This document shows positions 1,795 to 58,602 of a DNA stretch of 64,000 nt, one piece after another. The notes under the pieces were generated by a model, which saw only the letters and a list, made by a program, of their open reading frames with translations, did no database searches and was not told the DNA's origin. The position numbers and the translations under genes were made by a program. Source of the stretch: a virus (taxonomy: Duplodnaviria; Caudoviricetes); IMG/VR virus record IMGVR_UViG_3300031857_023573, positions 1 through 64,000 of that record; one strand, given 5' to 3'. How positions within the stretch are numbered: the stretch's first letter is position 1; the number at the start of each line of letters is the position of its first letter.

Positions 1795-2106
1795 TTATCT
1801 AAATTTAGAAGGATAGATATGTCTCCATTCGTGACCTTGTGGTATATCTTTTGCTCTGATACCAAAAATCTTTTTTTCAGGACAAGTGTCCTCACCATCT
1901 ATATAAAAATTGTTGTTACAAGCCCAAACTTCGATATTTCTACTTAATAACTGACCTTTTTCGAATGGGAATCTGATTCCGCTATCATTCTTTATTGAAA
2001 CTATTCTACCTCCTAGTGTTTCAACTTCTATTATGAGGCTAGGATTTCTCTTTCCAGTGAATGTAGTCTTTTTAGAGTAAGACTCAAATGTTTTTAGATG
2101 ATTCAT
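1795..2106 (-). CDS. Hypothetical protein with N-terminal tag (MNHLKTFESY)
   Basis: ORF; TAATATATA 4 nt upstream. Confidence 0.75.
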   Translation of the reverse strand: MNHLKTFESYSKKTTFTGKRNPSLIIEVETLGGRIVSIKNDSGIRFPFEKGQLLSRNIEVWACNNNFYIDGEDTCPEKKIFGIRAKDIPQGHEWRHIYPSKFR

Positions 2107-2110
2107 AAAG

Positions 2111-2119
2111 TATATATTA
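2111..2119 (-). promoter_or_regulatory. TAATATATA motif (candidate late promoter), representative copy
   Basis: Same 9-mer shortly upstream of about 20 starts in the window (listed in findings). Confidence 0.6.
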
Positions 2120-2140
2120 TTTAATTAAACTATAACACAG

Positions 2141-2167
2141 AAACTTTTACTAGGCTTTTGATATAAT
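2141..2167 (+). promoter_or_regulatory. AAACTT-N15-TATAAT candidate early/middle promoter, representative copy
   Basis: Bipartite motif with 15-16 nt spacer recurs upstream of about 13 non-structural genes. Confidence 0.55.
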
Positions 2168-2187
2168 TATAAATAAATCTATTTAAA

Positions 2188-3132
2188 ATGTCGATATTGA
2201 GTTACTTTGGAGGCAAGAGTTCCTCTACTTTTATGGAACTTATAAATTCCAAAATACCAAAAACTGGTATTAAAACTTATGTAGAGCCGTTTAGTGGAAG
2301 TTTCGCCACTTTTCTAGATGATGACTCACTAAATTTTGAAACAGTCATTTATAACGATAAGAATCGACATCAAGTCAATTTGATGAAGTGTTGTTCAAAT
2401 CCGGTAGAATTTATTCCGTATTTAGAAGAACTTAAATCAACACTTTTACATACTACTGAAGCAGAACCATTGAAAAAATGGGATTTTTATAAAAAAATTT
2501 ATAAACAGTATCAAAAAAATGATTTTTTAGATGATATGAATTTTGTAATCGGTGATTTTAAAAAGGCCGCTATTTATGCATTTTTGATCACATCATCTCA
2601 CAACTCTGTTTATCCAAGGGGCGGTGGTTTTAATGGATATAAAAAAGACAAGGATCGTCTTAAACTACAGGGTTTAATTGACAAATTGAATAAAAATAAA
2701 TATACACAAAAACTTCAATCGATTACTGAGTTTCTGAATATAGACTTTGAAGAATTGATCCTGAAATATGATTTAGAAGAAACATATCTCTATTTGGATC
2801 CACCGTACGCGAGATTTGATAGTGATAAAGGCGAAGATGATGCTAAAAGATTATTCTGGTATGGATCAGACGCAGATGGGGTATTCGGTCCGGCTTCTCA
2901 CAGAAGACTTCTTGAATTGATTAAATCATCAAAAAGTCGATGGTCACTTTCTTACTATTATTTTCCACTTCTTGAAGAACTTTTGCCGAAAGATAAATAT
3001 ATCTGGACTGAAAAGGAAGTTTTTAGAAGTTCTGCTCATGGTGGTAATAATTCTAGTAATAAAAAAGAACAATCAAAGGGTGTGGAATTGTTAATTCTAA
3101 ATTATGATCCTAAAACTGGAGAAAAACTATGA
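2188..3132 (+). CDS. D12-class N6-adenine DNA methyltransferase (Dam-like)
   Basis: SYFGGKS, YVEPFSGS (motif I), YNDKN, YLDPPY (motif IV), KGVELLILNY. Confidence 0.9.
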   Translation: MSILSYFGGKSSSTFMELINSKIPKTGIKTYVEPFSGSFATFLDDDSLNFETVIYNDKNRHQVNLMKCCSNPVEFIPYLEELKSTLLHTTEAEPLKKWDFYKKIYKQYQKNDFLDDMNFVIGDFKKAAIYAFLITSSHNSVYPRGGGFNGYKKDKDRLKLQGLIDKLNKNKYTQKLQSITEFLNIDFEELILKYDLEETYLYLDPPYARFDSDKGEDDAKRLFWYGSDADGVFGPASHRRLLELIKSSKSRWSLSYYYFPLLEELLPKDKYIWTEKEVFRSSAHGGNNSSNKKEQSKGVELLILNYDPKTGEKL

Positions 3133-5261: not shown

Positions 5262-5963
5262 TTATTTTTTACTGATAGTATTTATTATAGTATTTGTTAC
5301 AGATCCTGGTATTTCCGTTTTTTCAATTTTAAAATCACTTAAATCTATACCACTTATCAAATTTCTAAATTTTCTATCTGTATATGACCATCCGTTAGAC
5401 TTTATTACAATTTTATCATCTTCTAGTCTTATAGTAGTATCATTTGCAAAATCACTTTTACTCGCATAATTTCTTCTTTTAATTTCTTTGAATACCTGAG
5501 TGATTTTAGTAACTGATTGATCTACTTCGGTATCTAATAATATAAAAAGATAGATAGCAGGCCTATATGAAACTGAACCAGTGTTTATATGTAAAAAACA
5601 ATTATCATATCTTTGTGATATTTGTCCTAGTTCTCTAAAAATTGTAAATATTTTCTTGTCACTAATTAAACTTCTTTTTCCAAACCCAGTTGGTAATTCT
5701 AAATTTCCTTCAAGTTGTTGTATTGGAACTTCGATACAAAAACAATATTTATCATCATTGTATATTGGTTTGTTGTGTATGATACTAAAAACTTTGTCAC
5801 CGGGTTGTGCCCTATCGATTGCTTGCTTACTAAAATATCCTTTGTGTATTTCAAAATTTATTAACTCATCTCTTAGGTCAAGTAAAATATCATTAAGTTC
5901 ACTCTCATCATCTTCATGAGACTCACGTATCAACTCTATGAATTTTAAAATTTTGTTTTTCAT
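5262..5963 (-). CDS. Hypothetical protein with N-terminal tag variant (MKNKILKFIELIRES)
   Basis: ORF in minus-strand operon. Confidence 0.7.
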   Translation of the reverse strand: MKNKILKFIELIRESHEDDESELNDILLDLRDELINFEIHKGYFSKQAIDRAQPGDKVFSIIHNKPIYNDDKYCFCIEVPIQQLEGNLELPTGFGKRSLISDKKIFTIFRELGQISQRYDNCFLHINTGSVSYRPAIYLFILLDTEVDQSVTKITQVFKEIKRRNYASKSDFANDTTIRLEDDKIVIKSNGWSYTDRKFRNLISGIDLSDFKIEKTEIPGSVTNTIINTISKK

Positions 5964-6650: not shown

Positions 6651-7415
6651 TTATTTGTTAAATTGATTGTCGTAAGACGTTTTTTTCATCTCCATAACTT
6701 TTTCTACGTATCCATTTCTTCTTAATAGTTTAAAAATTAAGTTACCAGTTGATAGTTCACCACCTTCCTCAAGACCCGATTGTCTTGATTTTTTTATTTT
6801 TTTCCAAATTGAGTCTAATTTTTTTTCAATCACTGGATATTCATCCTCTTCAATTTTAGATTTGATCTCGTCAACTACATCCATAATTGCGCCAGCTTTT
6901 TTGATAATCGTTTTCTCATCTGGGACAAATTCTGATTTTTCTGGTTTTTTCAACCATTTATTTTTCATTACTGAGAAAGCACCACCCATTCTGTTTGTTT
7001 TAATACTTTCTTTGAAATCTTTTTCATCTTGAATGGCAACTTCTACTTCGAATCCTTTTAAGAAAATGTCGTGGTCTAGATTCCACTTTTTCTTCGCATA
7101 GTCACAAAATTTCTCAACTAATTCTAAATTCTCATCAATATCTTTGTAATTGACAATAATATGTAAGTCGTAATCAGAGTATTTATTACTCCAGTTATAG
7201 TTACAAAGTGATCCACAAAAAACAATATCCTTAACTTCACAATCTACCTCTACTGAATCAAAGAAATCTTTACCAATTTGTAGAAGATTCTCTCTAACTT
7301 CTTTGTCTAGATTTAAATCATCCCACAATTTAGGACATAGGTTATCTTTAAGATAAAATGATTTAATTGGTTCTAGATCTTTCTTATTGAATTCAAAGAA
7401 CTTTTGCAGGATCAT
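6651..7415 (-). CDS. Pol-beta-superfamily nucleotidyltransferase-like protein with N-terminal tag
   Basis: GSLCNYNWSNKYSDYDLHII (GS..DxD) plus later acidic VEVAIQD; ends NLIFKLLRRNGY. Confidence 0.7.
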   Translation of the reverse strand: MILQKFFEFNKKDLEPIKSFYLKDNLCPKLWDDLNLDKEVRENLLQIGKDFFDSVEVDCEVKDIVFCGSLCNYNWSNKYSDYDLHIIVNYKDIDENLELVEKFCDYAKKKWNLDHDIFLKGFEVEVAIQDEKDFKESIKTNRMGGAFSVMKNKWLKKPEKSEFVPDEKTIIKKAGAIMDVVDEIKSKIEEDEYPVIEKKLDSIWKKIKKSRQSGLEEGGELSTGNLIFKLLRRNGYVEKVMEMKKTSYDNQFNK

Positions 7416-10089: not shown

Positions 10090-10092
10090 ATT

Positions 10093-17611: not shown

Positions 17612-19279
17612 ATGTCACTTAAAAAAGATTTACTTAAATACGACCCTCGTAAAGAACAACAAGATTGTTTGGACTTTATTGATTCAGAATATAAAAAAAA
17701 TAAGGAAAATAAATTTTTCTTATTAAACCTACCTGTTGGGACCGGAAAGTCACATCTGGCCTTAATGATTGCGGATTGGTATTTGAAAAATGTTAATGGA
17801 AATGCTAAATTTGATGTTATTACAAATAGTAAGATATTACAAGATCAATATTCTGGTACCTATGGTTCAATAAATGATTTAAAGGGTAAAGAAAACTATG
17901 AGTGTGAACAATATTCTTGCTCTTGTGCCCAAGGAAATGAATTTAATAGGTTGAATAAGACTAGTTGTGAAGCATGTCCTCACTCTTCTGCACGAGACCA
18001 GTATTTAAGTGGTAGAATATCCTTAACTAATTTTTATCTTTATATTCTCTATCAACTCTATATGACAAAAATGATGGAGGGTAGAGGAGCTAATGTTTTA
18101 ATAGTTGATGAAAGTCACGAATTTGATGATGTGATGTCGGATTTTATTTCAATAAAAATCACAGAATTTGTTATTAAAAAATTGAAGTTTTCTAATGAAG
18201 ATAAAATACTCAAAGAACTAAAAAGAGTCAGTTCAATTTCTCAATATATTGACTTCCTAAAAGCACTTCAGGGTGAAATTAATACTACTATTTCCGATAT
18301 TGAAAAAGAGTTGGGTAGAGAAAAAAGAACAGCTAGATCAGTTAAGCGTGAAAATAGTGTGAATAAGGTATTGGGTGGGAAAAATTCAGATTTTAAATTG
18401 ATGCAAATTATAACAGACTTGCAACAATATCAGTCTAAAATAGAAATATTTTTGAAAGAATATGCTGCTAATCCAAACAATTGGGTTTTGGAGTCAAATT
18501 ACAATGAGAAATCAAAGCAAAAAGAATTATCACTAGAACCAATATGGGCTTTTGACTATCTAGATAAGTATATTTTCTCAAAGTATGACATGGTGTTTCT
18601 AATGTCTGGTACTATACTAGATAAAAATCTTTTTTGTATGTTAAATGGATTAGATGTGGATAAGGCGGTTTACTACTCTATAGATTCACCATTTCCAGTT
18701 AAGAATAGACCAGTTTTTTATATGCCACTTGGTAAGATGTCTTTCAAATCCAAAGAAGATACTTTCAAAAACTATGTTCCGTATATTCAAAAAATACTAA
18801 ATAAATATCCAGATAAAAAGGGTATTATACATACTAATTCTTTTGAACTTGCGAGTTGGATATCTAGAGACTTAAAAGATAGTAGACTTGTTTATCATGA
18901 TTCATCTAATAAAGATGAAGTTTTACAAAAACACTTTATATCAGAAAAACCAACAGTTTTAGTAAGTCCGAGTATGGATACTGGGGTAAGTTTCGATGAC
19001 GATCTGGCCAGATTTCAAATAATTGCCAAAATACCTTATCCTTCTTTAGCATCTCAGAAGAATAAACTTAGACAGAAGAACAATCCCGAGTGGTATTCAT
19101 GGAAAACAATTTCCGGTCTGATTCAAATGAGTGGAAGAGCAGTTAGATCGGTAGATGATTATGCCGATACTATTATAATTGATGGTTCATTTTCTGATCT
19201 TTTGAAGTATTCTGGTCAATATTTCCCGAAGTGGTTTCAAGAGGCAATTAAAAGAATTAATGTTAAGATTGGCGCCTAA
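17612..19279 (+). CDS. DinG/Rad3-family helicase
   Basis: LPVGTGKS (Walker A), VDESH, MSGT, QMSGRAVRSVDD; Cys cluster C-C-C-C. Confidence 0.9.
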   Translation: MSLKKDLLKYDPRKEQQDCLDFIDSEYKKNKENKFFLLNLPVGTGKSHLALMIADWYLKNVNGNAKFDVITNSKILQDQYSGTYGSINDLKGKENYECEQYSCSCAQGNEFNRLNKTSCEACPHSSARDQYLSGRISLTNFYLYILYQLYMTKMMEGRGANVLIVDESHEFDDVMSDFISIKITEFVIKKLKFSNEDKILKELKRVSSISQYIDFLKALQGEINTTISDIEKELGREKRTARSVKRENSVNKVLGGKNSDFKLMQIITDLQQYQSKIEIFLKEYAANPNNWVLESNYNEKSKQKELSLEPIWAFDYLDKYIFSKYDMVFLMSGTILDKNLFCMLNGLDVDKAVYYSIDSPFPVKNRPVFYMPLGKMSFKSKEDTFKNYVPYIQKILNKYPDKKGIIHTNSFELASWISRDLKDSRLVYHDSSNKDEVLQKHFISEKPTVLVSPSMDTGVSFDDDLARFQIIAKIPYPSLASQKNKLRQKNNPEWYSWKTISGLIQMSGRAVRSVDDYADTIIIDGSFSDLLKYSGQYFPKWFQEAIKRINVKIGA

Positions 19280-19991
19280 CCGCCTCTATACACTTTTCAA
19301 CTGCTTCAATTCCTCTTTTATCAAAAGAGAAAACCTTTGACTTAGATCTTTTTTGCAGTTCTGGTTCTAAGAATCTTTCTCTATCCGAATTTGGGATAGA
19401 CCATAAATTTGCTGCTGCCCATTCATCATCAGTCATTACAACATCGGATATATCAATAGATGAATGTATATCATCTAATTCGCCTTTTTCAAAAATTATA
19501 ATAAATTTGTTTTGCTCTCTATCAACATCTAACTTTATAATAACATCTTCTTCTCGACCTCTCCCTTTTAGAAAGCTATCTAAATCCGGAATGAAAACTT
19601 CTGAATCAAATTCATAAAATTGTAAATTTAAATGTTTTTCCAAATATGTCTTGAATTCTTCGAATGATTTTACATCTTTGTTAGGATTTACATCTTGATC
19701 TTTAAATTTTAACATAAAACTACATCTTGGTCCTCTGTTTTCTGTTCCGGTATAAACATGAAAATGTTCATTTAGTGAAGTATATCCAAGTAAGATAACT
19801 CTATTATTAAGTTCAATAACATCTTTTAGAAAATCTACTTTATTGACATTTTCTCTTATAAGACCAGATATAGTAACTACACCTTCATAGATGTCACACT
19901 CTATCTTTTCGTACCCTTGATCTTTAAAATCTAAAAGAAGGTCTTCAATCTCCTCCTTATTTACAGATTCATAGAATTTGAGTAGTTTCAT
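19263..19991 (-). CDS. Hypothetical protein with N-terminal tag (MKLLKFYESVN)
   Basis: ORF. Confidence 0.75.
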   Translation of the reverse strand: MKLLKFYESVNKEEIEDLLLDFKDQGYEKIECDIYEGVVTISGLIRENVNKVDFLKDVIELNNRVILLGYTSLNEHFHVYTGTENRGPRCSFMLKFKDQDVNPNKDVKSFEEFKTYLEKHLNLQFYEFDSEVFIPDLDSFLKGRGREEDVIIKLDVDREQNKFIIIFEKGELDDIHSSIDISDVVMTDDEWAAANLWSIPNSDRERFLEPELQKRSKSKVFSFDKRGIEAVEKCIEAVRRQS

Positions 19992-20193: not shown

Positions 20194-20565
20194 TTATCTC
20201 TTTTTCTTATCTTCTATTGACTTTTCAATTTTTTTAGCAATAGCCTTTTCCCAACCTTCAATCTTTTTATTCTTATTTCTATCCGCTAAATCAGGCCTTT
20301 TCAATCCAGATTTTTTATATGAAACAGGTTTATCCTTTTTAGATTCATTACTATCTTCTTCTTCACGCATCTCATCAGAATCAAGTACTTGTGGTTCTGG
20401 TTGAGTAGATGTTTCATCGTTGAATTCACCCTCTAAATCAGAGTCTTTTGTTATTTTTTCTTCAGGTGATTCAATATTCTCGATTTCATCTAAGTATTCT
20501 CTGTCTTTTGGTTGCTCTAGTTCTGGTGATAAGAAAAATGTTTCAAATCTTTTAAGGTGCCTCAT
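20194..20565 (-). CDS. Acidic low-complexity protein with N-terminal tag (MRHLKRFETF)
   Basis: ORF; TAATATATA at 20592-20600. Confidence 0.75.
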   Translation of the reverse strand: MRHLKRFETFFLSPELEQPKDREYLDEIENIESPEEKITKDSDLEGEFNDETSTQPEPQVLDSDEMREEEDSNESKKDKPVSYKKSGLKRPDLADRNKNKKIEGWEKAIAKKIEKSIEDKKKR

Positions 20566-32557: not shown

Positions 32558-32587
32558 AAAAACCTCTGAAAGTTCAGAGGTTTTTTT
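32558..32587. terminator. Bidirectional intrinsic terminator
   Basis: AAAACCTCTGAA-AG-TTCAGAGGTTTT between convergent genes. Confidence 0.85.
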
Positions 32588-40391: not shown

Positions 40392-40697
40392 ATGAAGATT
40401 AACAGATTCAATGAAAGTGAAGTTCAAAATTTATCCTCTGATAGAACAGACGAGATTATAAAAAGTCTTCAAGAACTATCAGTTTTAATAAATCAAAAAG
40501 ATGAGATAATTGAGTCATTAATAAATGAGTTAAATAATTTTAGAGATGTGTCTAAGTCTAAAAATGATCAAATTGACGATTCAATTTCGAATTTACAAAT
40601 TGTAAAATCTAGTTTTGTTGAGTCACTTGATAAAATGAATAACGTAGTTATCAGTTTGAACGATTACAAAGAGTCGGGTAGAAAATACTTATATTAA
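40392..40697 (+). CDS. Coiled-coil protein with N-terminal tag (MKINRFNES)
   Basis: ORF followed by terminator. Confidence 0.75.
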   Translation: MKINRFNESEVQNLSSDRTDEIIKSLQELSVLINQKDEIIESLINELNNFRDVSKSKNDQIDDSISNLQIVKSSFVESLDKMNNVVISLNDYKESGRKYLY

Positions 40698-40729: not shown

Positions 40730-41200
40730 TTACTTTAGATAAGTAAGTTTATAAATTGTTTTATAAAAAAGAGCTATGATTTCATCTACAATATTGTGAA
40801 GGTGTGTATCTTCTGATGATATTGCCTTTCTTTCTTTCTTAATAAATTCTACATTTTCTTTTAAGTAGTCTAAAGATTTAGTTTCACTAGTAATTGAGGA
40901 ATCAATTATTTCATATCCTTCTACAATTCCGTATTGACCTTGATATGTCTCGATTAGATCATCAGTGAATTCTAAAATCTCATTATAAAATTCACCAAGT
41001 GCTTCGTGTTGCCATCCAGAACCCATATCACCTTGAACTTGAAGATGAAAAATATGTGAAACCTGTCTTACTTCAAATAACTTTGAAAAGAAGATTGCAA
41101 CTTCTGATTTTTCTATTTGAACTTCTGGTTCATTTTGAACAATTTCTTGTTCATTTAATTTTTCAATTTTTTGTATTTTAAAATCACTAAATCTTTTCAC
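40730..41200 (-). CDS. Ferritin/Dps-like four-helix protein (DUF5856-like) with N-terminal tag
   Basis: SHIFHLQV..HEALGEFY..DDLIETYQGQYG..NIVDEI..TIYKL. Confidence 0.7.
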   Translation of the reverse strand: MKRFSDFKIQKIEKLNEQEIVQNEPEVQIEKSEVAIFFSKLFEVRQVSHIFHLQVQGDMGSGWQHEALGEFYNEILEFTDDLIETYQGQYGIVEGYEIIDSSITSETKSLDYLKENVEFIKKERKAISSEDTHLHNIVDEIIALFYKTIYKLTYLK

Positions 41201-41224: not shown

Positions 41225-41407
41225 TTATTTTGTCTCACCAATATTTTTGATGGTATATTCTGACTGTTCTTGGATTGACTGAAGAATTGAATCAGACATG
41301 TATCCGGCTTCTCCTTCATTTTCAGCAAAAATTTCTAGTTTTACTTCAGCAACTACTTCATATTTTTTCAAATATTTATTTTCTAATATTTTCGTGAACT
41401 TTTTCAT
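41225..41407 (-). CDS. Small protein with N-terminal tag (MKKFTKILEN)
   Basis: ORF coupled to upstream gene. Confidence 0.65.
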   Translation of the reverse strand: MKKFTKILENKYLKKYEVVAEVKLEIFAENEGEAGYMSDSILQSIQEQSEYTIKNIGETK

Positions 41408-42477
41408 AAGCTTGCCTTTATATTATTTGCTTTCCTTTTTATTGTCTTGCCTTGAAAATTTATTCTTTTCTGCCAATATTTTAAAAATTCAAGACAATTC
41501 ATTTTATTCAATGTTTCAAAACTTATTACCGGTTGTGTTTTTTGATTATCACATTCTCTTTTATAAGTTTTTACCCACATATCTTTTATTCTATCTGCAA
41601 CATCAGATTCTATTCCTTTATAAGGTTCGTGATCAGAAATTTTACTTAGGAGTTCTTCATAATACTTTTCTGCGTTGAATTTTTCCATCTCATCTGCCTT
41701 TTTATAAATTCTGAACTCAGATAGCTCTTTTTTTGGATATTTTTTTATAAAGTAGTAAATTTCTTGAATATTTGCTCTTGTTTCATGAAATTCAGAAAAG
41801 TAAAGAAAATAGGCGAAGTTTGTCCAGAATTTCCAGATATTTTTTGGAAATTTCCAAATATTTTCAGCCCAGCTAAGTGTTGAGTTAAAACTTCTACTTT
41901 CTGGTCTTATTATTTTAGATTTCCTCTTAACTCTAACATAGTGCTCATAACAATGATGTAGCTCATGATAAACAGTTGAGTTTATATCATCTTCCAGAAT
42001 ATTCTTATAAGTTCTGTTTTTATAATCAAAATCAGGTCCAATATCAATTGAAATTCCTAAATAAATTATTACAGAGTCGTCAGAAACTTGTTTGACTGGT
42101 TCAAGTATTCTTGAGTATCCAGACCAATTTTTATTACCGAAATACGATGCAAAACCACCTGTTTTAATTTCTAAATTTTTATCTGAAGTAGAAGGTGGGT
42201 ATTTTTTATCAAAATCTTTTTTTGATAGCTTATTAAAATCAATTTGTATTTCAAATTGTATTACTGGAAAATCAGACCAAAGTTCTTTATTATAAATAAG
42301 AGGATTTAATATTCTGTAGTCAATAGTTTCTATGGTTTGAAGTACATTTTCACCAGAATAAAAAAAATCAACAAATTTTGATCTAACTCTTCTGAATATC
42401 GTATTACTGAACATCAAGGATGATTCAGATACACCAAACTTTTCAAGTAAAAAATTCTGAAATGTTTTTAACCTCAT
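41404..42477 (-). CDS. Zincin-like (HExxH) protein with N-terminal tag
   Basis: VYHELHHCYE, downstream HETRA; TAATATATA at 42505-42513. Confidence 0.6.
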   Translation of the reverse strand: MRLKTFQNFLLEKFGVSESSLMFSNTIFRRVRSKFVDFFYSGENVLQTIETIDYRILNPLIYNKELWSDFPVIQFEIQIDFNKLSKKDFDKKYPPSTSDKNLEIKTGGFASYFGNKNWSGYSRILEPVKQVSDDSVIIYLGISIDIGPDFDYKNRTYKNILEDDINSTVYHELHHCYEHYVRVKRKSKIIRPESRSFNSTLSWAENIWKFPKNIWKFWTNFAYFLYFSEFHETRANIQEIYYFIKKYPKKELSEFRIYKKADEMEKFNAEKYYEELLSKISDHEPYKGIESDVADRIKDMWVKTYKRECDNQKTQPVISFETLNKMNCLEFLKYWQKRINFQGKTIKRKANNIKASL

Positions 42478-43056: not shown

Positions 43057-43323
43057 ATGAAATATTTAAAAATGTTTGAAGAATTTAGAATGAGTCCAGA
43101 AACTGCAGAACCAGTGATTGCACCACCTTCAACGCCAACAGAAACACCAAGACCTTGGAGACCAGTTCCAACTCAAGTTCCAAGACCTGGTACAGAAGAA
43201 AAACCAATGGGTTCGTTTGAAGAAGTTATGGATATTTTCTTTTATGAATTAGATAAGATTAAAGACACACCAGAAGGTCAATCAATTATAAAAAAATTAC
43301 AAGATAAATATGGCAATCTCTAA
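43057..43323 (+). CDS. Pro-rich small protein with N-terminal tag (MKYLKMFEEF)
   Basis: ORF; TAATATATA at 43026-43034. Confidence 0.75.
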   Translation: MKYLKMFEEFRMSPETAEPVIAPPSTPTETPRPWRPVPTQVPRPGTEEKPMGSFEEVMDIFFYELDKIKDTPEGQSIIKKLQDKYGNL

Positions 43324-44737
43324 AAAATTCTCACAGTTTTTAAATGAGGCTTCACTAAAGGGCAATATTGGTGTTCCAGGTGAAGGTGGAACTGAAGGTT
43401 CTTGGATCGATTCGATAAATCGCGAACAAAGAGACAAAGTCAGAGACTTTGAAAGAACTAATATGAATCTTTTAAGAGATTTTCCAAGAATTATTCAGAA
43501 TTCTCAATCATTACAAAGAGGTAAAGAAAAAGAACTTTCTGAACTTTGTCAAAAGTCGTTTTATCAATTATTTGGTACTTTACTTGACGATGTCACCCTT
43601 GATTTAAAAATTAGTCAAGAGGCTCGTCAGATGATGTCAGGTACACCCGAAAAATCTACTCAAAAAGTTGAAAATATTGTAGACCAGAGAGTTCTAGATG
43701 AAATAATGAAAAGAAAAATTCTAAGAACAATTCAACAAGGAAAGGGTCTTAATTCTAAATCATTACTAAACCTACCAATGTTTAAAGATGGTATAAAAGA
43801 AATTTTAGGAGAAAGAAACTCAGAATTATACATTAACAATTTGAACAATATAGTTAAAGTTATGGCATTTTTTGATGCGACTCTATCAGAAGCTCAAATC
43901 TCACAAGCTCTAAAGATGAATGCACAAGGCGCTTGTGATATTAAGATAGAAGAAGAAAAAAAGGATAAAGATAAACAAAAAGATGCAGAACAACTTCTTA
44001 ATGATTTAGAAAACGGTATTGATCTTACTGAAACTGAATCAGATATACTTAGTGACATTAAAGTTACAATTAAGGCACGTGGTGTTGATATGGGTATATT
44101 AATTCACGAATCACTTAAAGGTATTTATAAGTTAGCGACTCAAATGAGTCTTGAGCACTTACCAGAAGAACTAGCTAAACAAGTTTTGCAAAATGTTGAT
44201 ACTATTGCGGATGAGCCACAAGAATTTAAGTATGGTCCATCTATGCAAAAGCAGTTTGAAAAAGTTGTTAATTCTCACCCAAGAGTAAAAAAGATACTTG
44301 ATGAATATCAAAGAGTAATTACTCAGGGAGATTTTGAAGAGAGTAAAGCTGCAGAAAATGAAATTGCTTCTTTTCAAGAACAACTATTCTTTTATGTGTT
44401 TGGATACTTAGCTAATCTTGGAAAAGAAAATCCAAAAGATATGTTGAATGTTGTTTATGCTGTCTTGGCTGATAAGAAAGATGACATTGAAAAATTGTTT
44501 TTCCCAATAATTGTTGATTCTGTTACTGGAATAGAAAAAGAGTTTGAATATCAAATGTCGAAGAAAAAGACACAAGCTGAAAAGACTGACGTAAAATCAG
44601 AGGTAAAGCCAGACGTTAAAGTAGAAATTACACTTGCTGACTTACAAGAGCAACTTGATGATGCTTTAGATAATGAAGATTATGAAAAGGCATCTGAAAT
44701 CAGAGATGAGATAAAAAAAAGATTTCCAAATAAATAA
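43310..44737 (+). CDS. Helical protein with C-terminal UVR domain and N-terminal tag
   Basis: LQEQLDDALDNEDYEKASEIRDEIKK; start MAISKKFSQFLNEA. Confidence 0.7.
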   Translation: MAISKKFSQFLNEASLKGNIGVPGEGGTEGSWIDSINREQRDKVRDFERTNMNLLRDFPRIIQNSQSLQRGKEKELSELCQKSFYQLFGTLLDDVTLDLKISQEARQMMSGTPEKSTQKVENIVDQRVLDEIMKRKILRTIQQGKGLNSKSLLNLPMFKDGIKEILGERNSELYINNLNNIVKVMAFFDATLSEAQISQALKMNAQGACDIKIEEEKKDKDKQKDAEQLLNDLENGIDLTETESDILSDIKVTIKARGVDMGILIHESLKGIYKLATQMSLEHLPEELAKQVLQNVDTIADEPQEFKYGPSMQKQFEKVVNSHPRVKKILDEYQRVITQGDFEESKAAENEIASFQEQLFFYVFGYLANLGKENPKDMLNVVYAVLADKKDDIEKLFFPIIVDSVTGIEKEFEYQMSKKKTQAEKTDVKSEVKPDVKVEITLADLQEQLDDALDNEDYEKASEIRDEIKKRFPNK

Positions 44738-44743: not shown

Positions 44744-46726
44744 ATGTTACTTAGATTTCAAGACTTTAAATTAAATGAAAATGTAGCCGCTGCTAAAAAA
44801 ATATTGAAAGACACTTTCGTATTGAACAAGGCTTTAAAGGAACTAAATCTTGGGTTTAAGACCGATTCGACTGGAATGTTTCTTTTTGATAAGTCTGATG
44901 CTCCTATAAATTTCAGTGATCTGCCTGAAGAAGTTCAGGTTGAGGTAAAAAAGAAGATTAGAGAGATCAAATTAACTGAAGAGGAGCAAAGAGTGGTTGA
45001 AAGACATCCAAAATTTAATGAAATAAGAGAAATCTTGGGCGATAAATTAGGATGGGCAGGTCTATTTGCCTATCTATATTTTAAAGAAAAGGTTGAAATA
45101 AACGAACTTAAATTAATATTCGATGACCTTGTTGCTTTTCAGGACTTACTTGGAAAATTAAGAAGACCTATTTCAAATTATATAGACACAAACATACCTA
45201 ATAATTCTGAACAACTTATAGATGATATAGAAGATATCAAAAGATATAGAAAGTTAAAAAAGTTCATAGATGAGTTTAATAAAGATTTAAAAGCAGACTA
45301 TGCTGTGACTCCAAAGTATTTTAAAGATAGACTTATAGATATTGCTACTGCATTTGATGACTTAGGAAAAGAACAAAGTGGTAAAGTTGACCCAGACAAG
45401 CAAAGAGCTATTCAAAAAAGATTTTTTGATAAAATTGGAAGATATAAAACCGTTAGAGAGTTGACAGATGGAGCTGATTCGTTTTTAAAGGCAGAGTCAA
45501 ATGCAGATGTGGCTAAGTTTTACCAAGCAATAGATAAGTGTAATAAAAAATACGGTGAATATGGTATAAAAGTTCTCTATGATGAGGGTGGACTTTTAAT
45601 AATGGAAGTTAAGTCGTTTTCAGCTTGTAAAGAACTCTTCTCAAATACATCTTGGTGTATAGCTCAGTATTTAGGTCAGTGGAATAGTTATGTTGGTGGT
45701 GATGATGTATTTAACAAACAATATGCTATTTTAAATTTCAATTTACCACCATCTAATAATGAATCTATTATTGGTATAACAATCGCTCCTAGACAAGAGG
45801 TTAGAGCTTGTCATTTGAAAAACGATGCTAATGCTAAGGGTAATTTTCAGAGTATTTTTAATAAATTTGAAGAATCTTTGGGATTGGAAAGGGGATTTAT
45901 CTGGAAAGGACTTGAGCCAATGTCAAGTAAAGAGATTGATGAGAAGAAAAGAAGAATTGTAGCAAATAGAGAAGTTGTTAAAAAAGGTCTATCTCTTGAA
46001 CAATTGAAGAAGTATATTGTTGACGATGGTGCTGATGTAAATGCTGGAAATGGTCAAGCTCTAGATAATGCAGTTGCAGAAGATGACATCTCAAAAGTAG
46101 AATTTCTTTTAGATTTTGGAGCATCTGCTAATTTAAGAAATAGACAAGAGGCAACCGTTAACAAAGTTAAATCATTTGAAATTTTAAAACTATTGATTAA
46201 AAAAGGAGCCGAAATCACACCACAAGTATTTAAATCATTAGTTGAAGATGAAAATGCAATTAAATTCTGTCTTGATAATGGTTTAGATCCTAATTTTGAA
46301 GATAATATGCCACTTAGACTCGCTGTTAAAAATGGTAAATTAAACATTGTAAAAATGCTTGAAGAATATAATGTGAGCACTGAGAATAGAAGGCAGATGA
46401 ATACTAAGCACGCTGCTGAGTTTCAAAGATGGGATATTTTAGAGTATTTTATTAACAAAGGTGGATCCTATATTGAAGGATTTGAAAATGTGTTAAAATG
46501 GATTGGACACACTCAAAAAATTCAACCAGTTGAGAAGAAACTAGAAGTCTTAGATAGACTTCAAGGTTATATCGATAGTGGTAAAGTAAAAGTTAGTGAA
46601 TCTGGATATAAAGTTGGAAGTAATCGTGATGCTAAATTAGAAGATGTTTTGAATCAATTCGGTAGTGTCAAAAACTGGATTGTTGGTCAACACGAAGATC
46701 TGAAAAGAGCTAGTCAATCAAGATAG
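44744..46726 (+). CDS. Ankyrin-repeat protein with N-terminal tag
   Basis: GADVNAGNGQALDNAV..VEFLLDFGA, PNFEDNMPLRLAVKNGKLNIVKML; SWCIA domain upstream. Confidence 0.8.
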   Translation: MLLRFQDFKLNENVAAAKKILKDTFVLNKALKELNLGFKTDSTGMFLFDKSDAPINFSDLPEEVQVEVKKKIREIKLTEEEQRVVERHPKFNEIREILGDKLGWAGLFAYLYFKEKVEINELKLIFDDLVAFQDLLGKLRRPISNYIDTNIPNNSEQLIDDIEDIKRYRKLKKFIDEFNKDLKADYAVTPKYFKDRLIDIATAFDDLGKEQSGKVDPDKQRAIQKRFFDKIGRYKTVRELTDGADSFLKAESNADVAKFYQAIDKCNKKYGEYGIKVLYDEGGLLIMEVKSFSACKELFSNTSWCIAQYLGQWNSYVGGDDVFNKQYAILNFNLPPSNNESIIGITIAPRQEVRACHLKNDANAKGNFQSIFNKFEESLGLERGFIWKGLEPMSSKEIDEKKRRIVANREVVKKGLSLEQLKKYIVDDGADVNAGNGQALDNAVAEDDISKVEFLLDFGASANLRNRQEATVNKVKSFEILKLLIKKGAEITPQVFKSLVEDENAIKFCLDNGLDPNFEDNMPLRLAVKNGKLNIVKMLEEYNVSTENRRQMNTKHAAEFQRWDILEYFINKGGSYIEGFENVLKWIGHTQKIQPVEKKLEVLDRLQGYIDSGKVKVSESGYKVGSNRDAKLEDVLNQFGSVKNWIVGQHEDLKRASQSR

Positions 46727-47977: not shown

Positions 47978-48301
47978 ATGAATCAAATGGATTTTGAAAA
48001 ATTGTTTGGTGATAATTCTAAAGATTATTTCGAATTGTTAATTAAGAAGTATAATTTAAAGCCAAAATATGTGGTTTATCAAAATGAACAAGATGAAGTT
48101 ATCGTTGATGAACAATGGACATCAGAAAATACTGAAAAAGTTAAAGCAAATAGAATTTTCAAATTTGATCCTAATTTTCTTGATTTAATTGAAGATGAAT
48201 GTGTAAATGAAGTTTTAGAAAAAGTAATAGAGCTGTATGTTTCTATTGAGGATTATGAAAATGCTGCAATAGTTAAAAATATTCTCGATTCTGAGTATTA
48301 A
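47978..48301 (+). CDS. Hypothetical protein with C-terminal UVR-like motif
   Basis: LEKVIELYVSIEDYENAAIVKNIL. Confidence 0.65.
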   Translation: MNQMDFEKLFGDNSKDYFELLIKKYNLKPKYVVYQNEQDEVIVDEQWTSENTEKVKANRIFKFDPNFLDLIEDECVNEVLEKVIELYVSIEDYENAAIVKNILDSEY

Positions 48302-48477
48302 GACTTATAGTCACCGCCTCTTCTCTTTCTCTTACAATACTGAATTTGTGAAAAACCTCTTGGATTATTACAGTCAATTGACTTTTTATATTTAACAGAC
48401 CATCTTGATTTCATGCCTTTTCTTGGCTTGTTATAAGATTCATTTATAAACTCTTCGTATGTAAAGATATTATTCAT
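48298..48477 (-). CDS. Small basic protein with N-terminal tag (59 aa, not in ORF track)
   Basis: Hand translation MNNIFTYEEFINESYNKPRKGMKSRWSVKYKKSIDCNNPRGFSQIQYCKRKRRGGDYKS; ATG overlaps the upstream TAA. Confidence 0.75.
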   Translation of the reverse strand: MNNIFTYEEFINESYNKPRKGMKSRWSVKYKKSIDCNNPRGFSQIQYCKRKRRGGDYKS

Positions 48478-48830
48478 TATTTTTGAGAGAGTAATTGTGT
48501 TACTATAAAGACTATCTTATTTTCCGACTTTTTATATTCAAATTCGGATATTTTAAAATCCATAACATCAAAGTGACCTTGGATTTGTGAGTAAACATCT
48601 TTCTTTTTTAAGAATTCGAATACCTCACTTAGATTATTTTTATCAGATTCGTCTAAAAGATCTATTTGAAATTTTTTATTATCAATTTCTTCAAGTTTTA
48701 TTTGAATATTTGGAAATTTTTCAAGCATCTCTGAGAATACATAAGAAAGTACTTCTTCATCTATGTCAAATACTTTCTCGAAGTCAAAAAATTCAAATAC
48801 ATAATTTTCAAAAGTTAATAAATGTTTCAT
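48477..48830 (-). CDS. Hypothetical protein with N-terminal tag (MKHLLTFENY)
   Basis: ORF; TAAATATATA variant upstream. Confidence 0.75.
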   Translation of the reverse strand: MKHLLTFENYVFEFFDFEKVFDIDEEVLSYVFSEMLEKFPNIQIKLEEIDNKKFQIDLLDESDKNNLSEVFEFLKKKDVYSQIQGHFDVMDFKISEFEYKKSENKIVFIVTQLLSQK

Positions 48831-52587: not shown

Positions 52588-52670
52588 ATAGTGAGAAAAA
52601 ACTTTTAATATATATTAAAATTGATTTTTTAAATCTAATATATACAATAGAAAAAATTACACCTTTAGAT

Positions 52671-53135
52671 ATGAAATATTTAAAAACATTTGAAAACTAT
52701 CAAATAAACGAAGAGGAAGAAATAATTGGTAAAGTAAGAAAATTCTTTACTGGTTACGAAACTGGTGAAGATAAGCAAAAAGCAATGGTTGCATTCGAGA
52801 AAGCACTTGGTGAAATTACAGCTGAGTATAATAAGTCTCCTGAAAGTTGGGTTTATGTTTATAAATCTAAAGATGGTAAAGTAATGAATGAAATGGTTAG
52901 ACCTTGGGAAGATAGAGAACTATTAGCACTTACTAAAGATAAGGATAATAAAGATAAGCCTTATACAAAAACAAGATGTGAATTGCTAAAAGAAGAGGCA
53001 AAAGAAAATAATTACAGAGGTACACTAGAAGTTGGCTACTGGGGTACAAAAGTAAAGGGTGTTAAATATGTACCAGGAGCTTCTGAGTTTCAGAAGACTA
53101 CAATGGGTAGTTCATCACAGACAGTTGGTACTTGA
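52671..53135 (+). CDS. Hypothetical protein with N-terminal tag (MKYLKTFENYQINEE)
   Basis: ORF; TAATATATA at 52636-52644. Confidence 0.75.
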   Translation: MKYLKTFENYQINEEEEIIGKVRKFFTGYETGEDKQKAMVAFEKALGEITAEYNKSPESWVYVYKSKDGKVMNEMVRPWEDRELLALTKDKDNKDKPYTKTRCELLKEEAKENNYRGTLEVGYWGTKVKGVKYVPGASEFQKTTMGSSSQTVGT

Positions 53136-54771: not shown

Positions 54772-55362
54772 TTGATGATTAGAATACTTGGAAATATACC
54801 AAAAGGTGAATTTGGTCTCGCTTGCTCTGGTGGTGTGGACTCTATGGCTGTTGCCAATTTTTTATTAAACGGTGGTTGGGAGCCAAATATTTTATATTTT
54901 AACCATAATACTGAACATGGTCAACTTGCTGAAGAGTTTGTAACTAATTATTGTAAAACACATAATTTAAAATTACATGTTGATCGTACAGACCTTACTC
55001 CTAAGTCAAATAAAGAAAAGATTTGGAGTGATTTAAGATACGAATTTTTCTCTAAGTTTGATTTTCCAGTAATTACTTGCCACCATTTAGATGATTGTGT
55101 CGAGACATATCTCTTTTCATGTCTTAGGGGATTTCAATCAGTTATTCCATATTCTAAGGGTAATGTAATTAGACCTTTTTTACTTAATGAAAAGTCAGTA
55201 TTTTACGACTGGTGTTTACATAAATCGGTTCCTTTTATTGAAGATGAATCTAATTTAAATGTCAATTTCTCAAGAAACAGAATTCGTCATAATATTGTTC
55301 CAGAGGCACTTACGGTAAACCCTGGATTAAAGACGGTTGTTAAGAAAATGATTAGTATATAA
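54772..55362 (+). CDS. tilS: TilS/MesJ-like PP-loop ATPase (tRNA-Ile lysidine synthetase catalytic domain only)
   Basis: ACSGGVDSM, FNHN, RYEFF, TCHHLDDCVET, VIRPFL, EDESN, RNRIRH; lacks C-terminal tRNA-binding domains. Confidence 0.8.
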   Translation: MMIRILGNIPKGEFGLACSGGVDSMAVANFLLNGGWEPNILYFNHNTEHGQLAEEFVTNYCKTHNLKLHVDRTDLTPKSNKEKIWSDLRYEFFSKFDFPVITCHHLDDCVETYLFSCLRGFQSVIPYSKGNVIRPFLLNEKSVFYDWCLHKSVPFIEDESNLNVNFSRNRIRHNIVPEALTVNPGLKTVVKKMISI

Positions 55363-55741
55363 ACATACCAAGTCTGTAAAGTTCTTCACCATTAAATTCT
55401 AGAATGAAATCCTCAAATGGCATTTCTGTATCTTCTTCAGATGGAATATCTAAGTTTATAGTGAATCCCTCGAGTTCTGTGACAGTTTTTATTCTACTTA
55501 ATATTGGTTGTATTTCTTCAATTCTGAAAAATCTGTTTTGATTGTCTTGAAAAATTATTCTAATTGCGTCTACTGGATTTTTTTTTGATACGTAATACTT
55601 ACAAATCCAGAAAGTTGATTTGATTTCTACATCTTCACAATCTAATAAAATATCTTTAATTTCAGCAATTAATTCAGAATTTTCAGACTTGAATTTATCA
55701 AATTGGTCATCATAGGACTCAAACTTATAAAGATACCTCAT
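55352..55741 (-). CDS. Hypothetical protein with N-terminal tag (MRYLYKFESY)
   Basis: ORF; TAATATATA at 55746-55754. Confidence 0.75.
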   Translation of the reverse strand: MRYLYKFESYDDQFDKFKSENSELIAEIKDILLDCEDVEIKSTFWICKYYVSKKNPVDAIRIIFQDNQNRFFRIEEIQPILSRIKTVTELEGFTINLDIPSEEDTEMPFEDFILEFNGEELYRLGMFIY

Positions 55742-56236: not shown

Positions 56237-56577
56237 ACGAACTTTTTATGAATTTTCGAATTCTGAAACCAAGTATTGTTCTTGGAAAGAAGTTCAAAAT
56301 TATTGTGTGATTGTTCACAAATTTCTCTAAATTTTATCAAATCATAAGCGGTGAGTCTAAACCATTCACCGCTTATTTTTTTTTCACAAAAATGTCTGTG
56401 TAATTTAGCTTCAATTTGGGTTCCCCATTTAGATTCAAAAAAATCTACTAATTCTAGATCAGAGGCATTTCCAGTTTTTATTTCTTTAATTCTATTTTGA
56501 GGATTTCTTTTTGTATATCCTATTTTATAACATGTGTCACCTTCTATAGTCGAGGAAATTAGATATACTTTATACAT
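56233..56577 (-). CDS. GIY-YIG nuclease, T5orf172/MUG113-like
   Basis: VYLI..YKIGYTK..RIKEIKTGN..E..LH..F..GEWF. Confidence 0.8.
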   Translation of the reverse strand: MYKVYLISSTIEGDTCYKIGYTKRNPQNRIKEIKTGNASDLELVDFFESKWGTQIEAKLHRHFCEKKISGEWFRLTAYDLIKFREICEQSHNNFELLSKNNTWFQNSKIHKKFV

Positions 56578-56611
56578 GAAGTTATATATTACAACATCAT
56601 GTCTCTATTTT

Positions 56612-57322
56612 TTAATTAAAAACTTGATTAATTTTCATTTCTCTACCCAGAATAAAACATTTAGATTTATAATCATCTAAAATAGTACTATAGGCCACAA
56701 CTGATAAATTACAATTTTTATCTAAAACTTGAATTAAATTTCCTGATTTGTTGATTAATGACTTTGCACATTTTGATATTACTAATGATCTACCAGTTTG
56801 ATGTTTCCAGAATCTATAAGAAAGAAGTGTGTTAATTATCTGACAATCTTTATCTTCTCTAAGATTAGGATTAAAATTAAATATGCTATCAGAGATTAGA
56901 TAAAAGAAAAGCTCAACTGATTTATCTCTTACTTCAAGACAAGATTCTCTGACGATAGTGTCAAAGTTTCTTTGTCTATAATGTTCATCTATTGCTAATT
57001 TTTTAAAGTGAGTAGTTTCATCTAAGTATTTTTTAGGGATTTTAAAATATTCAAATTTGGTATAAACATCCTTGTATTTGAGAGGATAGTGAAAATCAGA
57101 CCAGTCTGTTTCTTTGATTATTTCTTCAACTGCTAACTTTTCTGATTGACTTTCTGGTTTACAAATTGAATATAACCAAGAAATGTGATCTATTTTTTTA
57201 TATTCATCGAAGTTAGACCAATCTATTTGACAAAGAAGCAAGGTTTTATATTCGCCTAATTTAGACTGATTTTGTACTTCTTTAATGACTTTTATTTCTG
57301 GAAATATAAATTTATCAAACAC
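56612..57322 (-). CDS. Hypothetical protein, C-terminal REMKINQVF tag
   Basis: ORF; TAACTT-N16-TATATT upstream. Confidence 0.7.
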   Translation of the reverse strand: MFDKFIFPEIKVIKEVQNQSKLGEYKTLLLCQIDWSNFDEYKKIDHISWLYSICKPESQSEKLAVEEIIKETDWSDFHYPLKYKDVYTKFEYFKIPKKYLDETTHFKKLAIDEHYRQRNFDTIVRESCLEVRDKSVELFFYLISDSIFNFNPNLREDKDCQIINTLLSYRFWKHQTGRSLVISKCAKSLINKSGNLIQVLDKNCNLSVVAYSTILDDYKSKCFILGREMKINQVFN

Positions 57323-57336
57323 TAACTAATATAGAA

Positions 57337-57636
57337 TTAGTAATTTAAAAAGTTATAGCATTTTTGAATTGCTGACATTAGGATATCTTGATTCTCTTCA
57401 CTATAAGAAGACGGGTATTTATCAGAGTACCAATCTATTAGGTAGTTGATAATTGCACTTTCTGCTTCACCATTTGAAAAATGAGAGTAATCACCATTTT
57501 CGGGTGTCCATTCTAAAACTTCCTTATCTAACATTTCTTTAACTTTTTCAAATGGAAAGTGTTCTTGGATTTTTGCTATTGCAAAATCTACATCAAATGA
57601 ATTAATATTTTCGTTATATTTTCTGAGATATTTCAT
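57337..57636 (-). CDS. Hypothetical protein with N-terminal tag (MKYLRKYNEN)
   Basis: ORF; TAAATATATA variant upstream. Confidence 0.75.
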   Translation of the reverse strand: MKYLRKYNENINSFDVDFAIAKIQEHFPFEKVKEMLDKEVLEWTPENGDYSHFSNGEAESAIINYLIDWYSDKYPSSYSEENQDILMSAIQKCYNFLNY

Positions 57637-57651
57637 GTTTTTATATATTTA

Positions 57652-58602
57652 CTATTTCAATTTAATTTGTATATAGACCCAAAACTTACTTGGATAAACA
57701 TTTATCATAACTTTTTCAACCCATCTATATTTTATTAAAAATGTTTTTAAATTAGATTTTATATTTTCAAGTTCGCCTTCATCTAATTGACCATTATCCC
57801 ATTTGCCACATCCATAATATCCAAAAGTTATGACTCTATCATTTATTTGAGGTGCCATTTTTTGTTCTGTATATCCTGGATTAAATGTCAACATTTCCAT
57901 TTTAATTTTTGACATAAGTGTGACATCTTCAAAATTAAAATTTACAAGTGCCTTTTTAAGACCCGATGTCGCTTTTAGGTCAGACAATTTTAGTTGATTA
58001 TAAATTGATTTTGTTAATTTAAAAAATCCTATTGGATTTAATTGATTAACATAGTATCCATATTCAAATATACCGTCACATTTGATGCCAAAATACAAAT
58101 TAATAGTTGGACTTGATGGTTCAATATGAATCGATTGTAGTGACTTAAAACGATTAAAAACAACTTTAACTTTCTCTGAATCTAAATTAGAAAATTTAAA
58201 GAATAATAAAAAATCAGATGGAGTTTCTTTTGTTTCAGGTGAATTTTCTTTGAAACCAAGAGCAGATAAACACTTAAAAAATGTATTTACTACACTTTTA
58301 CCGTAGCTTTCTTTGACTTCACCTTCTATATTATCTATGTCAACAATAGTTGAGACTTTTTTCTCGCCTTCTTCTTGATTTAGGTAATTCTCTACTCTTT
58401 TTAACAGTTCAACTTTCTTTAAATCGTCGAGAAGGTTAATTGCGTTAGATAGTCTTATCGACGGATTTATGTCTTGAGTCATTTGATTAGCAATCATTCT
58501 AATAAATTCATCTTCTATCGACAAATTCTCGATGTATTCACCTATTGAATTGCCTTCTAGTGAATTAGATTCTAAAATATATTTTTGATACTTTTTAATC
58601 AT
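57652..58602 (-). CDS. Hypothetical protein with N-terminal tag (MIKKYQKYILES)
   Basis: Start reassigned to ATG 58602, abutting the fibre gene stop. Confidence 0.7.
   Translation of the reverse strand: MIKKYQKYILESNSLEGNSIGEYIENLSIEDEFIRMIANQMTQDINPSIRLSNAINLLDDLKKVELLKRVENYLNQEEGEKKVSTIVDIDNIEGEVKESYGKSVVNTFFKCLSALGFKENSPETKETPSDFLLFFKFSNLDSEKVKVVFNRFKSLQSIHIEPSSPTINLYFGIKCDGIFEYGYYVNQLNPIGFFKLTKSIYNQLKLSDLKATSGLKKALVNFNFEDVTLMSKIKMEMLTFNPGYTEQKMAPQINDRVITFGYYGCGKWDNGQLDEGELENIKSNLKTFLIKYRWVEKVMINVYPSKFWVYIQIKLK

Follow-up and report, generated by a model that had tools for sequence, protein, structure and literature searches.

Why should proteins with little else in common begin with the same short peptide? 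The question is raised by a 64,000-nucleotide stretch of phage DNA (Duplodnaviria; Caudoviricetes), positions 1 to 64,000 of the IMG/VR record IMGVR_UViG_3300031857_023573, hereafter the window, in which about one fifth of the genes start with a common peptide of around ten residues, hereafter the tag. Its consensus, M-K/R-x-L/I-K-x-F/Y-x-x-F/Y, usually followed by hydrophobic-x-E-S/N/A, recalls both the capsid-targeting sequence (CTS) of phage T4 and a repeat in the predicted head scaffold of the same phage, and since so many genes share a peptide with this double resemblance, the phage probably packages a protein cargo of unusual size and diversity. As judged from sequence comparison, the tag itself is likely, although by no means certain, to be a portable, T4-CTS-like propeptide that would target proteins to the head by mimicking the scaffold and would then be removed by a protease.

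The source of the window is a huge freshwater phage. The stretch has a G+C content of 29%; its two strands together carry about 81 closely spaced genes, with zero tRNA genes according to ARAGORN. In a protein search, its family-B DNA polymerase (PolB) fragment is 80% identical to those of LR756502.1 (642 kb) and LR745206.1 (635 kb) and 41% identical to that of LR756501.1 (735 kb), which are the largest complete phage genomes reported and come from the Mahaphage clade, whose hosts are predicted to be Bacteroidetes (PMC7162821). These relatives came from protein search, as 12 kb of the window, compared with phage records by megablast, gave no match, and scans of IMG/VR and JGI metagenomes with one window gene returned relatives only, at most 84% identical. 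An exact-protein look-up led to contig L208, which differs from the window by 8 mismatches in 11,027 bases, and both represent essentially one genome.

Enrichment and portability of the tag

The initial annotation had listed 24 tagged N-termini, all of them present in the window where it had placed them (Table 1). Their alignment core consists of Met, a basic residue, L/I, K, an aromatic residue and another aromatic three residues on, often followed by I/L-x-E-S/N/A. Pairwise comparison of residues 2-16 yielded 81 pairs scoring at least 25, versus about 16 for segments starting at internal Met residues and about 23 for shuffled sequences (maximum 33). Because circularity was to be avoided, an independent hidden Markov model (HMM) was trained on 120 tags of LR756502.1, taken only from genes without a homologue in the window. 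At a threshold of at least 8 bits, 18 of the 81 window N-termini match this model, versus 1 of 251 internal-Met segments and 7 of 1620 shuffles, so that the motif is enriched over shuffled controls, a kind of comparison that the initial annotation had proposed. Seventeen of its 24 examples reach that score, whereas seven are weaker (those starting at 5963, 19991, 20640, 21851, 33401, 35313 and 44744), and the orthologues of several of the latter in the relative also begin in a tag-like manner; that of 44744-46726 begins MGIFKYNQFIGK. For the gene at 32586-33401, BLASTP found no homologue in LR756502.1, and a gene of the matching neighbourhood there begins MKIFNWQLFLEE. The extra match at 1073-1243 is probably a false positive, and two further weak candidates lie at 10093-10251 and 49419-49652. 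A chance or compositional effect could be imagined in an AT-rich genome of 29% G+C, where N-termini are rich in Lys, Asn, Phe, Tyr and Glu and short motifs are easily over-read, but tag scores are hardly ever attained by internal-Met segments or by shuffles of matched composition. A compositional artefact was thus rejected, and this poorly supported explanation has a practically negligible probability.

The tag is not confined to the window. In LR756502.1, examined in full with a profile trained on the window, 127 of 958 N-termini reach at least 10 bits, versus 1 of 3084 internal-Met segments and 6 of 4790 shuffles, and 156 of the 958 reach at least 8 bits, spread over the whole genome. The 400 kb scored of LR756501.1 gave 49 passing N-termini out of 545 (about 9%) versus 11 of 1939 controls, with tags of a more T4-like flavour (M-I-K-K-F-x-x-F-I-N-E-S/A), and 154 of the 1577 open reading frames (ORFs) within the 20 kb around the head genes in 80 IMG/VR relatives pass. 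The initial annotation was therefore right that the phage has many tagged proteins and underestimated the scale, as the tag is genome-wide in relatives. As a separate observation, several tagged LR756501.1 proteins carry a second motif, D-P-Y-G-E-E-x-W, 10-20 residues past the tag, and a small second gp21-like protein of that genome (11314-11850) also ends in it.

Beyond the tag, the proteins differ. A BLASTP comparison of the 24 bodies agrees with the earlier statement that the rest of each protein is unrelated, except for one pair, 20640-21839 and 22681-24993, with 26% identity over 355 residues (E 8e-25). These two paralogues (399 and 770 residues, both on the plus strand) lie between two helicase genes and match no family. 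BLAST clustering of the 156 tagged bodies of LR756502.1 gives 134 groups, and 126 of these have a single member. Within the window, PF19174 (DUF5856) spans only residues 64-152 of the protein at 40730-41200, and therefore the tag and its linker form an N-terminal extension. In the tagged proteins of LR756502.1, the recognised domains likewise start well inside, PPK2 at residue 151, lysozyme at 111 and RNA ligase 1 (Rnl1) at 81, and other tagged domains in the relative include DHH, NUDIX, HNH, SAM methyltransferase, DUF4314 and DUF6576, together with a Toprim-like and a PQ-loop match. An orthologue family beside the portal gene occurs with or without a 9-residue tag ahead of a shared N-Y-S-T-Y start. 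Next to the capsid gene, an NFACT-R (RNA-binding) protein of 129 residues (L208:13061-13450, minus strand, directly after that gene) begins MIKNYQLFLES, and its counterpart in the 642-kb relative, of 229 residues, is untagged.

These data also bear on the idea that the tag is an inherited N-terminus, left over from one expanded family of small proteins whose bodies diverged past recognition. Small tagged genes do occur in tandem clusters, one BLAST cluster has 12 members, and tagged genes evolve fast, given that 13 of 26 have a homologue in a relative with 80% PolB identity, at a median identity of 45%. However, bodies as distinct as PPK2, T4-type lysozyme, Rnl1, NUDIX, HNH, methyltransferase, ankyrin, DUF5856 and a nucleotidyltransferase fold clearly differ in origin, so that a variety of unrelated folds behind the tag is already partly apparent, orthologues exist with and without the tag, and a kept N-terminus would need a function even under common descent, which makes this poorly supported account very improbable.

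Pfam and PHROGs searches left most tagged window proteins without assignment. The earlier claim that no recognisable enzyme carries the tag holds at the Pfam level within the window, but not for the tagged enzymes of the relative nor for the gene at 6651-7415. The body of the latter probably has a nucleotidyltransferase-type fold, as suggested by weak but consistent fold matches to CD-NTases, aminoglycoside nucleotidyltransferases and CCA-adding enzymes, and by invariant G68-S69, D81 and D83 residues (G-S and D-x-D). An AlphaFold2 (AF2) model shows a confident body, with residues 1-19 unpacked at a pLDDT below 50. This family counts 949 homologues, and the 120 examined keep M-[KR]-x-x-K-[FY]-x-E-F at 60-88% overall identity. 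The codons of the tag vary (CTA, CTT, CTC or TTA for Leu, with Arg, Glu and Tyr codons also variable), and codon use inside tags is that of untagged N-termini. The varied synonymous codons and the peptide kept in the 6651-7415 family indicate that the constraint acts on the peptide, and a nucleotide-level signal was rejected on the basis of codon usage. A signal peptide or membrane anchor was also considered unlikely, because the tag is short, charged and without a hydrophobic core, and transmembrane-like segments are depleted in tagged proteins (3% versus 15.5% of untagged ones), which look soluble.

The T4 targeting sequence and the repeat scaffold

In the T4 record, the internal proteins IPII and IPIII begin MKTYQEFIAEA and IPI begins MKTFKEF. 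When the window-trained profile was run on the 258 T4 N-termini, IPIII ranked second (10.3 bits) and IPII third (8.7 bits), so the likeness to the T4 CTS perceived in the initial annotation was borne out. The first rank corresponds to gp61.1, a protein of 54 residues (MKTFKEFIKED; NC_000866 18966-19130, minus strand) encoded beside the primase gene. In T4, the ten N-terminal residues of IPIII are enough for incorporation, mutagenesis of the CTS assigned targeting to the aromatic residues 4 and 7 and processing to I8 and E10, and gp21 cleaves after L/I-x-E (PMC9026906). The positions kept in the tag are those important in T4; the tag profile has Y/F at position 0 and F/Y at +3. A cleavage-like site, hydrophobic-x-E-[SNAGE], is present in 64% of the tags of the relative, with its Glu at residue 9 or 11-13, versus 16-18% of untagged N-termini and internal windows, which lack a positional peak.

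The strongest link of the tag to the head comes from the head-gene neighbours and from a repeat scaffold encoded among them. LR756502.1 has the portal gene (Portal_T4, 196 bits), an ORF of 699 residues and the capsid gene (Gp23, 95.9 bits) in the T4 order, and the relationship of its major capsid protein (MCP) is seen by Pfam profile only, as phmmer found no match among T4 proteins. In the genome of the window itself, the head genes occupy 13559-19772 of contig L208, where the first window gene lies at 10001-10744, and thus about 2.5-9 kb beyond the window start. They encode a 579-residue Gp23 (PF07068) MCP, a 740-residue protease-scaffold and a 559-residue ORF without a Pfam family on record, which stands in the portal position. 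The 740-residue product (L208:15338-17560, minus strand) comprises a gp21-like domain, 10-11 tandem 14-residue repeats (K-N-I-A/S-Y-S/A-E-Y-I/L-A-E-N-L-D) and then an acidic stretch rich in E, S, T and Q. Its 699-residue counterpart carries at residues 290-445 about 10 tandem repeats of N-I-x-Y-S-E-Y-I-A-E-N-L-D-K, with a period of 42 nt in the gene (TRF), the orthologue of LR756501.1 (807 residues) has about 12, and all 80 IMG/VR relatives examined have 9-12. The core of this repeat (Y-S-E-Y-I/L-A-E-N) is that of the tag and is close to Y-Q-E-F-I-A-E-A of T4. A strict tag-core pattern has 32 internal matches in LR756502.1, 8 of them in the 699-residue ORF, the only protein of that genome with multiple internal copies. 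Moreover, the propeptide of the MCP contains a conserved E-Y-A-E-F/Y-H-x-I-N-E-N-A.

A candidate for the gp21-like protease, the search for which the initial annotation had suggested, is found in the same genome as a domain of the 740-residue ORF. In the 699-residue ORF it covers the N-terminal 210 residues, which in tblastn share 32% identity (E about 1e-15) with annotated head maturation proteases of cyanophages and one pelagiphage, and which BLASTP relates to T4 gp21 (E 5e-6) with the His motif aligned (GEFDHP / GELNHP). A phmmer search of this domain against PDB sequences returned no protease, and its AF2 model, for which the alignment was shallow, had a mean pLDDT of 39.6, too poor for use. 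A complex prediction for the 59-residue tagged window protein and the repeat region of the relative's scaffold gave no verdict, neither for nor against binding. In T4 itself, the scaffold gp22 (gene 22, 104117-104926) begins M-L-K-E-Q-L-I-A-E-A, like the second half of the T4 CTS (Q-E-F-I-A-E-A), a resemblance that parallels the one between tag and scaffold repeat described here.

The same features could also be read in terms of a recognition and cleavage signal for the gp21-like protease, which would switch on, switch off or time late enzymes such as lysozyme and ligase, or alternatively recruit transient core or assembly factors that are later degraded and expelled, with no delivered cargo. 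The cleavage-like site stands at a fixed distance from the N-terminus and recurs in the MCP propeptide and in the repeats of the scaffold. Some of the enzymes that bear the tag, lysozyme for one, have a late role in T4, and of the T4 core, gp22, gp67 and gp68 are cleaved to pieces that exit the head (PMC9026906). However, the T4 protease acts inside the assembled prohead (PMC5694885), so that its substrates must be inside anyway, and bodies of 100-800 residues with folded enzyme domains are unlike disposable scaffold. We give this alternative a small probability; it would differ from the head-targeting propeptide only in the fate of the mature protein.

The AATATATA box and putative late expression

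The octamer AATATATA occurs at 31 window sites, versus 11.4 +/- 3.3 in dinucleotide shuffles, and 28 of the 31 lie at most 60 nt upstream of a start on the same strand. It is also the most enriched 8-mer upstream of the tagged genes of LR756502.1, where it is found within 60 nt of 78 of 156 tagged and 80 of 714 untagged genes (odds ratio 7.9, p 5e-25), and in the window 17 of the 18 solid tagged genes belong to units headed by the box, versus 17 of 53 untagged ones. Upstream of the portal, protease-scaffold and capsid genes of the relative the box is present too, and since recognised structural genes have the box without the tag, the tag marks a subset of the putative late proteins. The distance from box to start is bimodal, 4-10 nt or 18-29 nt (the boxes at 2111-2118, 48835-48842 and 55746-55753, all on the minus strand, are examples), with 122 genes of LR756502.1 in the short class and 68 in the long one, and the short class would imply that late mRNAs have little or no leader. 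A candidate phage sigma factor for AATATATA is encoded at 3129-3740 (plus strand; 203 residues, with a Sigma70 region-4 match on record, PF08281); the genes beside it encode a D12-class N6-adenine methyltransferase (2188-3132) and a NADAR protein (1294-1794).

This arrangement invites an explanation in terms of late-gene expression, according to which many late mRNAs would begin at the AUG or shortly ahead of it, and initiation or early elongation would be helped by the nascent peptide or by the ten leading codons, presupposing a Shine-Dalgarno-poor host of the Bacteroidetes type. Tags are in fact commonest where the box lies 4-10 nt from the ATG (64 of 122, 52%, versus 13 of 68, 19%, at 11-35 nt), and AAA and TTA codons are preferred by N-termini in general. 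Nevertheless, tags use synonymous codons as untagged N-termini do, with Leu alternating between CTN and TTA; 78 of the 156 tagged genes lack a box within 60 nt, and many stand inside co-directional runs; nearly half of the genes with short spacing are untagged, as are portal, MCP and fibre-like late genes. The resemblance of the tag to scaffold repeats and T4 CTSs would also be left unexplained, and for these reasons a role in expression seems unlikely.

With regard to other genes of the window, the family-B DNA polymerase ORF at 16069-17610 (plus strand, 513 residues) holds the exonuclease domain and only the start of the polymerase domain, which suggests a split enzyme; this ORF is followed by tagged genes of the other strand.

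Table 1. Tagged genes and AATATATA boxes of the window, with examples of a second motif in a relative; scores of tagged genes are those of the independent tag HMM.
Feature	Position	Strand	Score (bits)	Remarks
Tagged gene, 103 aa, MNHLKTFESY	1795..2106	-	19.2	AATATATA 4 nt upstream
Tagged gene, 254 aa, MILQKFFEF	6651..7415	-	11.5	putative nucleotidyltransferase-fold body
Tagged gene, 123 aa, MRHLKRFETF	20194..20565	-	18.7	own AATATATA box
Tagged gene, 770 aa, MIKKYSDF..LFES	22681..24993	+	10.7	no Pfam/PHROG family
Tagged gene, 230 aa, MKRISNYKKFLVNES	39642..40334	-	11.4	own AATATATA box
Tagged gene, 101 aa, MKINRFNES	40392..40697	+	11.3	relative's orthologue begins MKKIRKFNES
Tagged gene, 156 aa, MKRFSDF	40730..41200	-	8.1	GTG start; DUF5856 body
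Tagged gene, 60 aa, MKKFTKILEN	41225..41407	-	10.2	
Tagged gene, 357 aa, MRLKTFQNFLLE	41404..42477	-	10.1	own AATATATA box
Tagged gene, 88 aa, MKYLKMFEEF	43057..43323	+	16.9	two AATATATA boxes upstream
Tagged gene, 475 aa, MAISKKFSQFLNEA	43310..44737	+	9.1	C-terminal UVR motif, PF02151
Tagged gene, 59 aa, MNNIFTYEEFINES	48298..48477	-	18.6	most T4-like tag
Tagged gene, 117 aa, MKHLLTFENY	48477..48830	-	15.4	box 4 nt upstream
Tagged gene, 154 aa, MKYLKTFENYQINEE	52671..53135	+	22.1	
Tagged gene, 129 aa, MRYLYKFESY	55352..55741	-	14.1	box 4 nt upstream
Tagged gene, 99 aa, MKYLRKYNEN	57337..57636	-	26.3	orthologue begins MKYLRRYNED
Tagged gene, 316 aa from ATG at 58602, MIKKYQKYILES	57652..58602	-	9.1	orthologue begins MKIKNYIQFIKES
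Weaker tag, 233 aa, MKNKILKFIELIRES	5262..5963	-	5.5	unit headed by AATATATA box
Weaker tag, 242 aa, MKLLKFYES	19263..19991	-	6.5	unit headed by AATATATA box
Weaker tag, 399 aa, MKILNFFDFIFEN	20640..21839	+	5.8	
Weakest listed tag, 277 aa, MRVLNFEKY	21851..22684	+	<2.5	box 5 nt upstream
Weaker tag, 271 aa, MRIFKWSKFLES	32586..33401	-	4.1	box 5 nt upstream
Weaker tag, 370 aa, MRLLLEFKDYNE	34201..35313	-	4.6	
Weaker tag, 660 aa, MLLRFQDFKLNEN	44744..46726	+	3.2	ankyrin repeats, Ank_2 at residues 502-573
AATATATA box, candidate late promoter	2111..2118	-		one of 31; shuffle enrichment
AATATATA box	52637..52644	+		upstream of tagged gene 52671-53135
AATATATA box	57642..57649	-		5 nt upstream of tagged gene 57337-57636
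LR756501.1 examples with D-P-Y-G-E-E-x-W	338419-338715, 132555-132890, 132880-133257, 176207-176557			

A proposed head-loading pathway and its known counterparts

The most likely pathway would start late in infection, when tagged proteins would be made alongside head proteins. The exposed tag of 9-13 residues would mimic the 14-residue repeat of the phage's own scaffold, itself fused to the gp21-like prohead protease, and by binding to the scaffold the tagged proteins would co-assemble with its core within the forming prohead. The protease would then cut after Glu in the scaffold repeats, the capsid propeptide (..I-N-E-N-A..) and the tags, and the mature cargo, freed inside the head, would be delivered with the DNA. 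As already considered in the initial annotation, some tagged proteins could instead be parts of the head core or scaffold. One copy each of the 156 tagged proteins would amount to about 3.4 MDa; T4 holds about 1000 internal-protein molecules in the head of a 170-kb genome (PMC3012670), and a head for 640 kb would plausibly have room for many copies of each.

Several observations weigh against this pathway. The tagged bodies are acidic, with a median isoelectric point of 5.1, and the internal proteins of T4 are basic; with 16-22% of the ORFs tagged, the payload would lie far above any known virion cargo. The best T4 match, gp61.1, is a hypothetical protein not known as a head protein, and the motif alone is therefore no proof of packaging, as gp61.1 is either an unrecognised CTS bearer or a sign that the motif is incompletely specific. 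No canonical cleavage-like site exists near the N-terminus in 36% of the tags, and the subclass MK-H/Y-L-K-x-F-E-x-Y fits the scaffold repeat only loosely and the T4 positions less exactly as well. The protease domain scores 20-24 bits with Pfam S77 (PF03420), under the 27-bit cut-off, and the exact AATATATA box is absent upstream of the MCP and protease genes of L208. Finally, the excess of tags behind close boxes leaves room for a translation-linked role. All in silico tests able to part the tag from head assembly instead drew the two closer, and to that extent the interpretation given in the initial annotation is supported.

A further possibility, which we put forward tentatively and with less than even confidence, is a pre-made infection kit of about 100 or more head-loaded proteins, injected with the DNA by virtue of a universal, scaffold-mimicking tag, which would comprise many orphan proteins besides a lysozyme, nucleases and enzymes that handle nucleotides and RNA. 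This touches on the question of what use the largest known phages make of their hundreds of orphan genes. If the tag marks head cargo, 15-20% of their proteomes would gain a location and a timing, as proteins made late, packed and first to act in the next cell, and part of the huge genome would serve to stock effectors for injection, their likely functions being counter-defence and takeover. The tag would then allow the injected proteome of uncultured phages to be read straight from sequence, and would offer a natural, programmable packaging signal. It would also show how the T4 targeting principle itself may work, namely by a tag that copies the repeat and the cleavage site of the scaffold.

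Among the papers of the library searched, none linked capsid targeting sequences with huge, mega or jumbo phages of this clade. Other systems offer partial counterparts. In encapsulins, a short portable peptide also brings diverse cargo into an HK97-fold shell, but it is usually C-terminal, binds the shell directly and is not removed. The phages phiKZ, 201phi2-1 and SPN3US share large heads with many internal or ejection proteins, propeptides removed after Glu by a diverged gp21 homologue, and paralogues with conserved N-termini (PMC5694885, PMC9026906). However, their propeptides mostly exceed 100 residues and are cut at S/A-x-E sites in about 8-19 proteins, neither a short universal tag nor a repeat scaffold has been described there, and the clade studied here has T4-type gp23 and gp20 and consists of Mahaphage relatives. 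With T4 gp22 and gp21 the system has in common the gene order portal, protease/scaffold, capsid and a scaffold expected to be cut into short peptides, whereas here a single ORF of 699-807 residues carries 9-12 near-identical 14-residue repeats. The closest counterpart is the CTS of T4 IPI, IPII, IPIII and Alt, also of about ten residues at the extreme N-terminus (M-K-x-Y/F-x-x-F-I/L-x-E), borne by otherwise unrelated, fast-evolving proteins, with a Glu at about position 10 as in L/I-x-E cleavage, in a phage with gp20-, gp21- and gp23-type head genes (the gp20 counterpart in the genome of the window being assigned by position). In contrast with the handful of T4 bearers, 16-22% of the ORFs are tagged here, about 150 in the 642-kb relative, a dominant subclass is MK-H/Y-L-K-x-F/Y-N/E-E-S, the bodies are acidic and include enzymes, and the predicted scaffold forms one polypeptide with the protease and consists of tag cores in tandem. 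These comparisons support the view that the T4 CTS system may have grown in this clade into a signal that sorts proteins on the scale of the proteome, coupled to a repeat scaffold and protease in one fusion.

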